This document shows positions 18,798 to 28,472 of a DNA stretch of 64,000 bases, piece by piece. The stretch lies in NCBI RefSeq assembly GCF_030013595.1, contig NZ_CP122768.1. One strand, written 5' to 3'. Below the pieces are notes generated by a model that saw only the letters and a program-made list of their open reading frames with translations, was not told the DNA's origin and made no database searches. Made by a program: the position numbers and the translations under genes. This stretch comes from Escherichia coli (GTDB taxonomy: Bacteria; Pseudomonadota; Gammaproteobacteria; Enterobacterales; Enterobacteriaceae). Position 1 is the stretch's first letter. Each line of letters opens with the position of its first letter.

Positions 18798-19424
18798 ATG
18801 GCAAGTCAAAGTGTGCTGCCTCCGAACGCAATAACTCCCGAGAGGGCGCTTGAGGTTGTTTTATCTCACGTCGGCGATCTGCCTGGCGATATTCGAATTA
18901 TTAAAAATCCCGATTTGTGCCCTGCAAATCTGTTGCCGTGGCTGGCGTGGGAGTACGCGGTCACCTACTGGAACCCCGACTGGAGTGAGCAGCAAAAACG
19001 CGAAATTATTAAGGCCGCAGCCTGGCAAAATAAATATCGCGGCACGCGTGGTGCCGTCGAACGAGCATTATTAACGGTGGGATTTGAGAGCAAAATGAGA
19101 GAGTGGTTTGAAGCCACGCCCAGGGACGACCCGTATACATTCGCAATTAAAATATATCTGCTAAAAAGTATAGGGTTAGATTTAGAACTATTGAATACCT
19201 TTATTGCACAAATATTTGATGCAAAAAATTGCCGTTCCTTATTAAAAGAAATAAATTTTGAAACGGGTGTCGATGGTGAGTTTTTTATAGCTGGTGCACC
19301 TTACGCGAAAATAGGCGTAAATATTCCAGCAGACGGCGACGGCGGTGTAAAAATTAACGGCGGGCTATATATATCAGGCTCACCAATTGTTAGTTTAAAT
19401 GTGGAGATAGGGCCAAATGGCTGA
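18798..19424 (+). CDS. Tail protein (P2 gpI-like)
   Basis: LLPWLAWE motif matches P2 I. Confidence 0.7.
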   Translation: MASQSVLPPNAITPERALEVVLSHVGDLPGDIRIIKNPDLCPANLLPWLAWEYAVTYWNPDWSEQQKREIIKAAAWQNKYRGTRGAVERALLTVGFESKMREWFEATPRDDPYTFAIKIYLLKSIGLDLELLNTFIAQIFDAKNCRSLLKEINFETGVDGEFFIAGAPYAKIGVNIPADGDGGVKINGGLYISGSPIVSLNVEIGPNG

Positions 19425-20595
19425 AAATAAAATTTACGCAGTACTGACAGACCGGGGGGCACAACTTGAGGCCGCGGCATTAGCATCAGGTGTGCCGGTA
19501 GTACTGAATAAATTCGTTATTGGTGACGCGAACGGAAACGACGACGTAACACCGGACCCGTCACGAACAGTATTAATTCACGAAACGTATCGCGGAGATA
19601 TTAAATCGTCAGAAAATAGCGGCAATCAGGTTATTTTTACACTGTACGTACCACCGGAAACCGGCGGTTATACTATTCGAGAGGTTGGAATATTAACAGA
19701 TAAAGGCGAGCTGTACTCTGTAGCACGCTCGCCGGATATTTTAAAACCCACGGACAGCAACGGCGCGCTGATTTCAATCACATATAAATACACTCTCGCG
19801 GTGTCCAGCGCGTCTACTGTTAACGTTGTCATTGATAACAGTAGTGGAATGAGCCAAGCAGATGCAGATAAGCGTTATTTGCAGATAAGCAAAAATTTAT
19901 CTGAAATTAAAGATAAGGGCGCGGCGGCGCAACAAGCTGGGCGAGAAAATCTCGGCGTTAACTTAAATAACTATTATAAAAAAGAAGAGATAGATAATAA
20001 ATTTTCAGAAGTGGATAATGAGTTAAATAATATAAACCCAGTCATGACGGTTAACCATTTACAGCCTGATTCTGACGGCAATGTTAATGTGGATTCGGGA
20101 TACGCAAAACTGGGCGGCGACGGGGCATTTAATTTAGTTGCTCTGTTTCCGCAGCAATCTGAACCTGACGCGACAAATAAAACCATGCCTGGTTACCGGC
20201 TTTCTTCTGTGATATTTAAAGCGAATCCCAGCCTTGAAATTTTGGCTCATGGATATTTATTTGGATTGTGGGAATTAATTGCCATTCCGTTAGTGACAGT
20301 ATCTAGCGGATACGAACTGAATGGCGGTGTTTCTGGTGCTGTAATGGCTCGGCGAATTCCTGTTGGCAATATAAACAAATTCAGCAATATAAAAAAACCT
20401 CATTATCCTCAGGGCCGTGGCGTGGTGGGAACGTATGAAACTGCCTACATAAACATTGAATGCGATATTGAGGGAGTTGGAACCGGACTAATATTCACGA
20501 CAAATAATAATGATGTTGAGGAATACGGTCGTCAATTATATCAAAACGCAATAAACGGTATGTACGGCACAGTAACAAACGGTTATCAAAGTTGA
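19417..20595 (+). CDS. Tail fibre protein (P2 gpH-like N-terminus; divergent AT-rich C-terminal region)
   Basis: N-terminal collar/fibre domain similarity to P2 H (LIHE..., PPE.GG, RE.GL); C-terminal half has distinct composition. Confidence 0.6.
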   Translation: MAENKIYAVLTDRGAQLEAAALASGVPVVLNKFVIGDANGNDDVTPDPSRTVLIHETYRGDIKSSENSGNQVIFTLYVPPETGGYTIREVGILTDKGELYSVARSPDILKPTDSNGALISITYKYTLAVSSASTVNVVIDNSSGMSQADADKRYLQISKNLSEIKDKGAAAQQAGRENLGVNLNNYYKKEEIDNKFSEVDNELNNINPVMTVNHLQPDSDGNVNVDSGYAKLGGDGAFNLVALFPQQSEPDATNKTMPGYRLSSVIFKANPSLEILAHGYLFGLWELIAIPLVTVSSGYELNGGVSGAVMARRIPVGNINKFSNIKKPHYPQGRGVVGTYETAYINIECDIEGVGTGLIFTTNNNDVEEYGRQLYQNAINGMYGTVTNGYQS

Positions 20596-25490: not shown

Positions 25491-26534
25491 ATGAGTGATT
25501 ACGTAAATACTGGCGTGGAAGCATGGAAGCCCAATTTTTATATATCTGCTGATAATGAAAACATCACGGATAAAATAAGAAAAGGTTTGATCAATATCAC
25601 GCTCACAGATTATGGTGGTTCGAGTAAACAGACAGACGAATTACGCGTAGCAATCGTTTCTGAAACTCTGAAAATTCCGGCCCGCGGAGTAAAAATCAGT
25701 ATTGGGCTCGGTTTCGGTAATCAGATAATTGATAAGGGTGTATACATCGTTGATGGTGCGAGCAGTGGCGGTGAACCCCGGGTAGTTGATTTCACAGCAA
25801 AAGCAGCGCCGATGAACGCATCAAAAGGCTCTCCGACAGTTCAGAGCAAAAAAACTCGCTCCTGGAGCGACGTCACTGTCAGCAATATCGTTGCAACAAT
25901 AGCGAGCGATAACGGGCTAAAACCACGCGTATCAAAGCGGTTTGCAGACAATATTATCACGCAACTCGATCAAGTCGGCGAGTCAGATATGCACCTGATG
26001 TCGAGACTAGCAACACGATTCGATGCGGTGAGTAAACCCGCGGGAGGGTACTGGATATTCCTGCCGCGCGGCGCGGGCGAATCTGTTAGCGGAGCGCCGC
26101 TTCAGCACTACACGCTCACGCGTCGTGATAACTCCAGCTGGGGTTATTCACGAAACGGACAAAGTGGCGATAGTGGTAGCGGTGGCGAAAATCCGGAACC
26201 GACGTATCTGATTAAATATCACGACACAGCAACTGGGCAGATCAAAGAATTGCGGACAGGTAGTGGCGGCGATCCTGTCATTGAATGGCCGACAGTTGAG
26301 CCGTCGCTCGACGCAGCGAAAGAAGCTGCACCAGGGCTCAAGGGCGGTGCAGCTAAAAAAGAGTTCTCTATGACGTACACGACGCCAGCGACGCTCGATT
26401 TAGTGTCGCTGACAGCAGAATGCAAAGTCACAACTCAAGGATTCGGGACCGAGGAGGACCGGGACTGGACTATCAACACGCTGAGCCTGACGCTTGCTGA
26501 AAACGGCTTTTCGGTTCGACTGTCACTGGAGTAA
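25491..26534 (+). CDS. Tail protein D (P2 gpD-like)
   Basis: Size and position as the last tail gene of a P2-type cluster. Confidence 0.65.
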   Translation: MSDYVNTGVEAWKPNFYISADNENITDKIRKGLINITLTDYGGSSKQTDELRVAIVSETLKIPARGVKISIGLGFGNQIIDKGVYIVDGASSGGEPRVVDFTAKAAPMNASKGSPTVQSKKTRSWSDVTVSNIVATIASDNGLKPRVSKRFADNIITQLDQVGESDMHLMSRLATRFDAVSKPAGGYWIFLPRGAGESVSGAPLQHYTLTRRDNSSWGYSRNGQSGDSGSGGENPEPTYLIKYHDTATGQIKELRTGSGGDPVIEWPTVEPSLDAAKEAAPGLKGGAAKKEFSMTYTTPATLDLVSLTAECKVTTQGFGTEEDRDWTINTLSLTLAENGFSVRLSLE

Positions 26535-26539
26535 ATGAA

Positions 26540-27487
26540 ATGGCAGTAATATCGGGTGTATACGCAAACGGGATCGGTGGGCCAGTTGTCGGCGTTCAGT
26601 TAGTATTAACAGCGCGGGTCACGAGTTCAGGCGTAGTAATGACCACCGTTGTAGAGCAAAAAACAGGCGCGGCGGGTGAGTACAAATTTGATATGAAGCC
26701 CGGCGTTTATGTCGTCACTGGTTGTGGCGCGTATCTGGGCGTGATTAATGTTAATCCGGACAGCCCAGACGGTACGCTAAACAACTATTTAACTAATTTT
26801 AGCGCAGACGAAATGACGCCGGCGGCGCTGACCGAGATCCAGGAACTGGTTAACGAGGCGAAGGCCGCGGCGGCTACTGCTCAGGATGCTGCTGCGCAGG
26901 CGATAACCGCAGTAGAAAAAATCGGCACGCCTGCGCCGTACATCCCGCCAGCGTGGGACGCCCCGGGGAGCACAATTTTTGGATATCTTTATATTGATAA
27001 AGGCACGTCATATCTACGGCCGGGGGAGATTGTTTCCGCGTCGTCAATTTACGTTGGCAACGTGACAATGATCGATAAGGGGAGCGGCCCGATGATCGGC
27101 ATGAGTCACACGCAGCAGCCCAGCGGTGGGAGTTGGCGTTTGCAAGGCAGCACAACACCAAATACAGACGCGAGTGTTAAATCAATGCGCAGCGCATTGA
27201 TTTTTCTCAGAATTGATAGCGACAGCCTGTTAACGCCCTCTCTGTTAAAAAGCGGTCGCGGCTCTGCGCGGGTGCGTAATTGCCGTTACGTAAACGCAGA
27301 GGGGACCTCGATTGATTGCGAGATTTTCACAGCAAACAGATGGATTCCGTTTACAGCGGCCGCTGATGACGTAACTGATTGGGGACGAAAAATTTTCAGC
27401 GACGCCCTAGCCGGTTTGTACGGTGTGATTGGCGTATTCGGCGCCCCCCTTTTTCCAGCTAATTGCAGTGAATCACCAGTAGTCTAG
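26540..27487 (+). CDS. Hypothetical protein (315 aa) following gpD; possible fibre-like/receptor-recognition protein or cargo
   Basis: ORF 5 nt after the gpD stop; Gly/Val-rich N-terminal segment then Ala-rich helical stretch; no confident family. Confidence 0.4.
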   Translation: MAVISGVYANGIGGPVVGVQLVLTARVTSSGVVMTTVVEQKTGAAGEYKFDMKPGVYVVTGCGAYLGVINVNPDSPDGTLNNYLTNFSADEMTPAALTEIQELVNEAKAAAATAQDAAAQAITAVEKIGTPAPYIPPAWDAPGSTIFGYLYIDKGTSYLRPGEIVSASSIYVGNVTMIDKGSGPMIGMSHTQQPSGGSWRLQGSTTPNTDASVKSMRSALIFLRIDSDSLLTPSLLKSGRGSARVRNCRYVNAEGTSIDCEIFTANRWIPFTAAADDVTDWGRKIFSDALAGLYGVIGVFGAPLFPANCSESPVV

Positions 27488-27732
27488 CCCCCTGACCATC
27501 ATGGTGTAACAGGAGTTCGCTTGGCTGAAACGGATTCTCGGCGCGGTTATCTCTTGAGTAAATGAAACGGACTTGGGGAGGCTATAGAGAGCGCCAATTT
27601 AGTATTAACGACAGTCGACTGCAAACGGCACCTGCGTTATTTTTATGTGTAAGCCGAAGGACGAAGAGCCTCTGGTGCTGGACGTTGTTATCGTTAGATG
27701 CTGACAATTTTTAATATTGGGAGTTTTCAAAC

Positions 27733-28152
27733 ATGGTCGTTAAAAATGCTCTTGCCTGTGGGATTATGCTTGCTCTTGTCGGTTGTGCTACAAAACCTGT
27801 CTCAAATGAACAAGCCACACCTGTTCCTGAAAAACAAATAATCAGTACCGCGTTACTCGAAAAACGAGACGGTACGGGAGAGGTGATCATCAAGCGTGAC
27901 TCGGGGTTCTTTGGAAGCGCGTGCTTTTCCCGTGTTTATGTTGATGGTAAAGAGGTGGCAGATTTAGGTACAGCTCAGAAAGTCGTTGTATACCCAACGA
28001 TTGGAGATCATGTCTTCAGCGCGTGGCCTAAAGGGGTATGTGGCGGTGGCATGAGCGAACAGGCGGGCAAGGTGACAACAGAACGTACTTTGATGTATCG
28101 CATAGGGTATGGATCAAACGGTGAATATGGCATTCACCCAACTGCGTTTTAA
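27733..28152 (+). CDS. Lipoprotein (139 aa), prophage cargo gene adjacent to the attachment site
   Basis: Signal peptide with lipobox LVGC; own upstream non-coding region (27488..27732); located between the tail genes and att. Confidence 0.55.
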   Translation: MVVKNALACGIMLALVGCATKPVSNEQATPVPEKQIISTALLEKRDGTGEVIIKRDSGFFGSACFSRVYVDGKEVADLGTAQKVVVYPTIGDHVFSAWPKGVCGGGMSEQAGKVTTERTLMYRIGYGSNGEYGIHPTAF

Positions 28153-28373
28153 TTTGTGTTGGGGTATGTGAGTTTTTCTCATACCCCTTTACCTCACTTT
28201 GCTCTTGACTGTTTGGTCACATCAAGGCGCAAAACATCACCATTTTTTGCCAAAAACCTTCAGAAGATGATGAGTAAGACGTGTCATAACTATATGATTA
28301 TTTGATATTCACACACACCATTATGTCCGGATAATTTACCATAATCATTTGAAATTATTGCACAAAACGAACA

Positions 28374-28429
28374 ATTTAAAATCCCTCGGCGTTCGCGCTG
28401 TGCGGGTTCAAGTCCCGCTCCGGGTACCA
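28374..28429 (+). tRNA. leuZ: Partial tRNA-Leu (leuZ-type, anticodon TAA), 3' 56 nt only (anticodon loop to CCA); prophage attachment-site core
   Basis: Sequence aTTTAAAATCCCTCGGCGTTCGCGCTGTGCGGGTTCAAGTCCCGCTCCGGGTACCA matches the 3' part of E. coli tRNA-Leu(UAA); the 5' half (acceptor and D arms) is replaced by phage sequence. Confidence 0.8.
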
Positions 28430-28472
28430 TGGGAAAGATAAGAATAAAATCAAAGCAATAAGCAGTGTCGTG

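Follow-up and report, generated by a model that had tools for sequence, protein, structure and literature searches.

A probable short accessory tail fibre encoded directly behind gpD in an Escherichia coli prophage with a lambda-type head and a P2-type tail

The gene that directly follows gpD in the E. coli prophage described here probably codes for an accessory tail fibre that is short and modular; the temperate phage combines a lambda-type head with a P2-type tail, and the role that we propose for the fibre is host recognition. The window, as we call the whole stretch of 64,000 nucleotides that was analysed, contains this prophage next to yecA-tyrP-ftnA, and the ORF occupies positions 26540..27487 of the + strand (315 aa, ATG start). 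The proposal is carried by the identities of the domains of the ORF product, the fold of its anchor, the recurrence of its tip at the ends of fibres, and the exchange and loss of the cassette in related prophages. The best reading is of an accessory fibre that is non-essential, trimeric and receptor-binding; we infer its trimerisation, its presence in the virion, the binding of a receptor, the docking site and the role of a fused terminal domain.

The prophage and its tail gene cluster

The head genes of the prophage are of the lambda type (gpW, portal, S49 protease, decoration protein, major capsid, FI and FII), and its tail genes are of the contractile P2 type (V, W, J, I, H, sheath, tube, E, tape measure, U, X and D). 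A gpV/gpM homologue was neither annotated nor found in the tail cluster. The primary tail fibre is a P2 gpH-type protein of 392 aa (19417..20595, + strand) with a PF12571 N-terminus (E 1.2e-31), and it ends in the same sub-domain of ~57 aa as the ORF product. The sheath gene directly follows this fibre gene, with no gpG/Tfa chaperone gene between them, and the gene behind the ORF encodes a lipoprotein and no Tfa. In the GF43 relative, the tip of H is of another kind, and a Caudo_TAP chaperone gene follows the H gene.

Between the FII-like head-tail joining gene (15027-15407) and the baseplate gene V there are two genes, at 15438-16118 (226 aa) and 16115-16651 (178 aa), whose products have no Pfam match. 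By their position, these proteins are candidate tail completion or terminator proteins, and hence candidate docking partners for a fibre.

The gene for the lambda-type large terminase, terL (8087-10048), is interrupted by a TAG codon at 9035-9037, where the genome HCP5S3_I2 has TGG (A/G at 9036). In HCP5S3_I2 and its sibling genome (99.8% nt), an IS4-family element, ISVsa5, lies inside terL instead. With a TAG in one case and an IS in the other, packaging looks defective in both versions of the prophage, owing to lesions that arose independently, and the tail genes are intact. Thus, the prophage of the window is probably defective, and the combination of an intact tail and a broken terL could reflect either the decay of the prophage or a use of the tail alone, as in tailocins. 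The function of the ORF in its present host is therefore uncertain, though the gene family is constrained.

The ORF and its expression signals

The ORF is present as the original prediction described it, with a length of 315 aa and a start 5 nt downstream of gpD. Its upstream neighbour encodes the gpD homologue, a tail/baseplate hub protein of the Pfam Phage_GPD type (25491..26534, + strand), and the ATG of the ORF follows at that distance from the TAA stop of D (26532-26534). As read from the sequence, the ATG is preceded, at a distance of 8 nt, by a GGAG Shine-Dalgarno sequence (26528..26531, + strand) that overlaps the 3′ end of D. This position suggests that translation of the ORF is coupled to that of D. 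A promoter and terminator scan gave nothing convincing around the ORF, and in the D-ORF interval no promoter-like and no convincing terminator-like site; in the alignments the Shine-Dalgarno sequence and the 5-nt gap are kept in all the alleles compared.

A protein identical to the ORF product is already on record (P0001), and the nucleotide sequence of the ORF is 99.8% identical in two complete E. coli genomes from pigs. Full-length homologues of 307-331 aa, with 43-91% identity, occur in E. coli and Salmonella, and they retain the length of the ORF product and all its motifs. For the N-terminal 104 codons, comparison with two related prophages gives a dN/dS of 0.13-0.15. Judged by this conservation, the ORF is a genuine gene under constraint. 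No close DNA relative was found among GenBank phages, in which tblastn gave only distant matches to the N-domain, in the lateral fibres of siphophages.

The C-terminal tail, residues 301-315 (27440..27484, + strand), is non-conserved and predicted with low confidence, residues 305-314 having a pLDDT <50 in the AlphaFold2 (AF2) model. Most homologues stop 7-10 residues past the YG.V motif. In addition, a run of six C at 27444-27449 is a run of seven in both of the 99.8%-identical genomes, giving a protein of 308 aa instead of 315 aa; this frame change touches only the unconserved tail beyond the YG.I motif of the ORF. The last 15 residues are probably a read-through into a recombination junction, which fits both the character of the tail and the C6/C7 difference.

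The N-terminal anchor domain and the helix

The Pfam family PF08400 (phage_tail_N, prophage tail fibre N-terminal) matches residues 3-124 with 79.3 bits, against a cutoff of 26.6 (E 3.4e-22). About a dozen PHROG tail-fibre families also match the ORF product, and PGAP names the 99.8%-identical homologue in the two pig genomes a 'prophage tail fiber N-terminal domain-containing protein'; the NCBIfam search gave no match. These assignments contradict the description of the protein as unassigned. The related statement that it has no recognisable tail-fibre collar domain has to be narrowed likewise, since PF08400 is present and what is absent is only the collar domain of the P2 gpH type, PF12571, for which no match was found at E up to 1.

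The AF2 model, a monomer predicted from 56 sequences with a mean pLDDT of 85.8, consists of a beta-sandwich (strands within residues 2-71), a helix (94-127) and a globular part (strands within 145-274 and a helix at 280-290). The Gly/Val-rich N-terminal segment of the original prediction corresponds to the beta-sandwich strands, and its Ala-rich stretch to the helix at 94-127. Together with its linker, the sandwich forms an Ig-like, transthyretin-like domain at residues ~3-92 (26546..26815, + strand), the core of the PF08400 match and the virion-anchoring 'collar' domain. In the sequence-profile search of the PDB this domain matches 9e7m (E 1.7e-16) and gp40 (E 9.7e-6), and no part of the protein beyond it has a match. 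The fold of the domain agrees with that of the solved Stf collar domain, and it also conforms to the gp40N/gp82N type, in which an Ig-like domain is followed by a helix of the coiled-coil type.

The Ala-rich helix (26819..26920, + strand) would be a putative trimeric coiled-coil stalk. Because the AF2 model is of a monomer, trimerisation through this helix is a proposal by analogy.

The C-terminal tip module

The distal globular module, residues ~129-300 (26924..27439, + strand), is a putative receptor-binding tip of ~170 aa, predicted confidently by AF2 and carrying the motifs PG, GTW.L.G and RID. The C-terminal 187 aa have no Pfam match, and the module has no match in the PDB either. When residues 125-315 were searched against 1.84 billion representative proteins, the matches fell into two classes.

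The first class comprises about fifty proteins that match residues ~130-300. Of the 44 clusters extracted, 43 have the end of the match at most 13 residues (0-13) from the C-terminus. Seven of the ten proteins scanned have a PF08400 N-terminus, three of these seven also containing collagen repeats and three CBM5_12, and in several of the extracted matches the module is preceded by Gly-rich, collagen-like sequence. Since the module lies at the extreme C-terminus of its carriers, most of those scanned being PF08400 fibres, it is a fibre-tip module. Among its carriers the ORF product has the minimal architecture, in which a short stalk links the anchor to the tip.

To the second class belong ~100 small proteins, which match residues 244-300 of the ORF product with the ~60 residues at their N-terminus. 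This terminal sub-domain of ~57 aa (27269..27439, + strand) has the order strand-strand-strand-helix and the motif RVRNCRY..IDCE..W.PFTA..D..WGR.I...A.AG.YG. It is matched by phrog_1141 and phrog_1795 (positions 8-64 of 194), and tblastn and alignment tie it to ORF-191A of P-EibA, Stf2 of SerU-LTIIb and gp12 of the Pseudomonas phage Itty13. The genes for ORF-191A and Stf2 directly follow a side-tail-fibre gene, and both proteins contain DUF4376 in their C-terminal halves; the gp12 gene follows a tail protein gene. A Pfam scan did not find DUF4376 (PF14301) in the ORF product, which has only the N-terminal ~60 aa in common with ORF-191A and Stf2. For characterised DUF4376 chaperones, a beta-strand region outside the IMC-like body has been described as the fibre-interaction site (PMC10579305). 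It is tempting to see in the terminal sub-domain a chaperone-docking domain now covalently built into the tip.

Two other origins of the sub-domain were considered and rejected. Fission and fusion of genes from one ancestor is not supported by the fibres encoded upstream of ORF-191A, Stf2 and gp12, as they do not have the middle domain of the ORF product. Derivation from a Caudo_TAP/gpG-type chaperone was discarded in view of the lack of similarity to the GF43 Tfa.

An exchangeable cassette behind gpD

The same tail cluster is found at another chromosomal site (yodB/zinT) in E. coli E24377A and GF43, with a PF08400 gene 5 nt after D that encodes 336 aa in E24377A and 608 aa in GF43. The fibre genes of the window, E24377A and GF43 are 87-89% identical at the nucleotide level over their first ~310 nt and diverge completely beyond. 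PHROG tail-fibre families match the GF43 protein over its full length (phrog_4128; also phrog_13714 and 7032). The C-terminal region of this GF43 allele (L003 9001-10827), some ~480 aa, has no Pfam or PDB match; its appearance by eye suggests an alpha-helical repeat or barrel enzyme, possibly a depolymerase.

In an Enterobacter prophage (L013), a PF08400 gene directly follows gpD. In two Salmonella prophages (L010 and L011), reverse-strand pRha or KilA-N genes lie between D and the PF08400 fibre gene, so that the fibre gene there is not coupled to D and needs its own start signals. The inserted antirepressor-like genes are at 7061-7687 in L010 and at 6874-7683 in L011. A Pseudescherichia homologue (L012) combines the same type of tip with a divergent anchor, and its gene lies after gpJ of a lambdoid siphophage. 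The lineage-specific anchors have identities of 59-89%, versus 35-43% to lambdoid Stf anchors. In these alignments, the anchor follows the type of particle and the tip crosses from one type to another, and the slot after D is an exchangeable fibre cassette in which the anchor is retained while the tip is swapped or deleted.

Immediately behind the ORF there is the scar of an older fibre cassette (27497..27713, + strand), recognised from alignments and BLAST. It begins with a diverged second 3′ end of gpD, with its stop and an ATGAA spacer, and continues with the decayed start of a fibre gene, which runs through the LVLT codons and there passes into the final ~100 nt of a GF43-type 608-aa fibre gene. 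In vB_EcoM-720R5 (a 'phage' record), JJ1887 and EC28, the prophage is at the same yecA site and the slot contains no ORF: the scar directly follows gpD, and then comes the conserved lipoprotein gene. In the window, the intact gene is accompanied by a copy of the scar, which lies just behind its stop. The intact gene, the duplicated end of D and the scar together indicate that an intact cassette recombined in front of a deleted one.

The D gene of this lineage occurs in 453 of 5426 complete E. coli genomes, about 8%. The deletion scar is found at an identity of at least 99% in 430 of these 453 genomes, a PF08400 gene in 23, and the allele of the window in two. The 430 genomes with the scar probably go back to a few events that spread clonally. 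Strains labelled ST131 belong to the lineage (O25b:H4-ST131 2017_APHA and JJ1887), and such strains are also among the 430.

The last gene of the prophage encodes a predicted lipoprotein of 139 aa (27733-28152) with the lipobox LVGC (phrog_890 'lipoprotein', E 3e-52). The gene is conserved in GF43, 720R5, JJ1887 and EC28, where it likewise lies behind the fibre slot, and its product may act in the lysogen as an exclusion factor or moron. PGAP annotates a 105-nt 'tRNA-OTHER' in the interval from the prophage end to yecA in a 99.8%-identical genome, corresponding to ~28326-28430 of the window (L001 21787-21891). ARAGORN found no tRNA anywhere in the window, and Rfam gave only sub-threshold sRNA hits. 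The annotated element may be a fragment of the tRNA at the attachment site.

Proposed function and alternative explanations

We propose the following pathway. The ORF would be translated from the late tail transcript, right behind gpD, and three chains would then join via the Ala-rich helix. The three Ig-like domains (residues 1-90, PF08400) would dock the fibre on the virion, as for lambda Stf, XM1 and A-1(L), and the distal module of ~170 residues would bind a host surface structure, giving faster or broader adsorption beside the gpH-type fibre. The last ~57 residues would derive from the fibre-docking N-terminal domain of a DUF4376-type chaperone and would be permanently fused to the fibre; a fused chaperone domain would also explain why there is no chaperone gene behind either fibre of this prophage.

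Where such a fibre would attach deserves separate consideration. The absence of gpV/gpM and the masking of the tube by a contractile sheath make the docking site used in lambda hard to place. By analogy, the alternatives are the neck, as in both myophage precedents, and the baseplate. With a helix of ~34 residues, the fibre would be very short, and from the neck it would hardly reach the cell before contraction; this keeps alive a baseplate site, or a 'collar' role that does not involve a receptor. A bolder version of our proposal, of which we are doubtful as a whole, is that the Stf collar domain is a portable socket adaptor for P2-type contractile particles, probably at the neck, and that the tip is a new receptor-binding fold which has absorbed a domain of a DUF4376 chaperone. 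If this were true, a portable socket and a self-folding arrangement of anchor, stalk and tip would leave both fibres of the phage independent of chaperones and would be useful for retargeting phages or tailocins.

Alternatively, the ORF product could be a neck collar or whisker, attached at the head-tail junction like XM1 gp40 or A-1(L) gp82 and serving to strengthen the neck or, in the manner of T4 fibritin, to control the primary fibres, with no direct role in receptor binding. The nearest structural relatives on contractile-tailed phages are attached to the neck (PMC10457771, PMC10966104), and the covered tube and the shortness of the fibre point the same way, as does the A-1(L) neck fibre, whose tip showed no host binding (PMC10966104). 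We nevertheless consider this explanation unlikely: close relatives swap their tips and keep their anchor, the usual signature of a host-range determinant, the tip module is also found at the end of long fibres with collagen repeats and of a lambdoid side fibre, and the GF43 allele matches tail-fibre families over its whole length. A different objection is that the ORF might be a functionless relic, a fragment of a lambdoid Stf-type gene captured at the prophage end by illegitimate recombination, whose product, even if it is made, is not incorporated in the P2-type particle. The region is rearranged, with a duplicated 3′ end of gpD and a deleted older copy alongside, and the C-terminal tail appears to be derived from the junction. 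The scarcity of the intact gene, missing from 430 of the 453 related E. coli prophages, counts against the accessory fibre too, and the TAG in terL makes current selection on the virion genes doubtful, terL being broken by the IS in the 99.8%-identical genomes as well. Yet a relic would hardly account for the order of D followed by a PF08400 gene, conserved in E. coli, Salmonella and Enterobacter together with anchors specific to the lineage, nor for homologues that keep their length and motifs, the low dN/dS, and a Shine-Dalgarno sequence and spacing preserved in every allele; we regard it as quite improbable.

Co-transcribed cargo had been the second option of the original prediction. The gene would then be a moron unrelated to virion structure, expressed by the lysogen and encoding an adhesin, an exclusion factor or another protein of benefit to the host, and this finds support in its location at the extreme end of the prophage, beside the conserved, moron-like lipoprotein gene. 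The N-terminal sequence of the product contains no signal peptide or lipobox and is a virion-docking fold, the gene has no promoter-like site of its own and appears coupled to gpD, and all the family matches are to tail fibres. With a secretion signal absent and a virion anchor present, we rejected this explanation, which has very little chance of being correct. The other suggestion of that prediction, a second receptor-recognition protein, is the one favoured by the fibre anchor, the coiled-coil-type helix, a tip common to many fibres and the swapping of tips. As to whether the product is a standard tail component of all related phages, its structural homology to a known fibre anchor is clear, but universality fails, most of the lineage having the scar only; the intact gene is thus no standard tail component of the lineage.

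An accessory fibre therefore remains our preferred explanation, and several consequences follow from it. The idea that gpD closes the tail cluster has to be corrected for this lineage, in which there is a second, exchangeable fibre slot that is mostly reduced to a scar. The conservation of such a slot for a second fibre behind gpD, in a prophage lineage common in E. coli, is mildly new, as are a recurrent, uncharacterised tip fold without a solved structural relative and a terminal domain, by our proposal chaperone-derived, in both fibres of one phage. A minimal fibre of 315 aa, made of an anchor whose structure is understood, a short stalk and a compact tip that seemingly needs no separate chaperone, is attractive for the engineering of host range.

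Comparison with known fibres

The collar of Ur-lambda, at the gpV-gpM junction, is made up of twelve StfN domains, from which linkers of ~10 residues lead to four coiled-coil fibres (PMC12617516). The Ur-lambda Stf (PDB 9e7m/9mgh) and the ORF product have the PF08400 anchor and the collar fold in common, and the helix of the ORF product has a position equivalent to that of the coiled coil behind the collar domain of Ur-lambda Stf and of XM1 gp40 (PMC12617516, PMC10457771). The differences are considerable. Lambda Stf has 774 aa, a gp37-like tip and a separate chaperone, Tfa, whereas the ORF product has 315 aa, an unrelated tip and no chaperone gene. The collar of lambda Stf is a 12-mer on a non-contractile tail, in contrast to the P2-type tail without gpV/gpM considered here, and stf is encoded after J and lom, not after gpD.

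The fibres of XM1 and A-1(L) are closer in the type of particle. The collar spike of the Vibrio phage XM1 consists of gp40, six trimers of which are bound to the head-completion and tail-terminator proteins by a 100-residue Ig-like domain, which is followed by a coiled coil (PMC10457771), and in the cyanophage A-1(L) gp82N of the neck fibre attaches to the neck ring (PMC10966104). Thus, gp40 (7kjk) and gp82 (8keg) resemble the ORF product both in the anchor and in belonging to contractile-tailed particles. They differ in that gp40, of 839 aa, includes a body of the tailspike type, and that gp82 belongs to a 100-nm bead chain of three proteins. Their docking partners are head-completion and terminator proteins in one case and a 15-mer neck ring in the other; the neck proteins of the prophage in the window are lambda FI/FII-like, together with two that have no assignment.

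Like P2 gpH, the ORF product is encoded in a P2-type tail gene cluster and is probably receptor-binding. Its gene occupies another genomic slot, and with no PF12571 domain the protein could not use the gpI/gpJ wedge socket in the manner of gpH.

Alteromonas V22 gp27 and A5 gp9 are characterised examples of DUF4376-type chaperone or cap proteins, a type to which ORF-191A and Stf2 also belong. The sub-domain alignment covered ORF-191A, Stf2 and Itty13 gp12, which match the end of the ORF product through their N-terminal ~60 residues, including the C..FT..D..GR...G.G core. They are proteins separate from the fibre, while the ORF product has no DUF4376 or IMC-like helical body and carries the domain within the fibre itself. 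Taken together, these comparisons add a further case of one tip found on both siphophage and myophage tails, and the current view of phage fibres stands.
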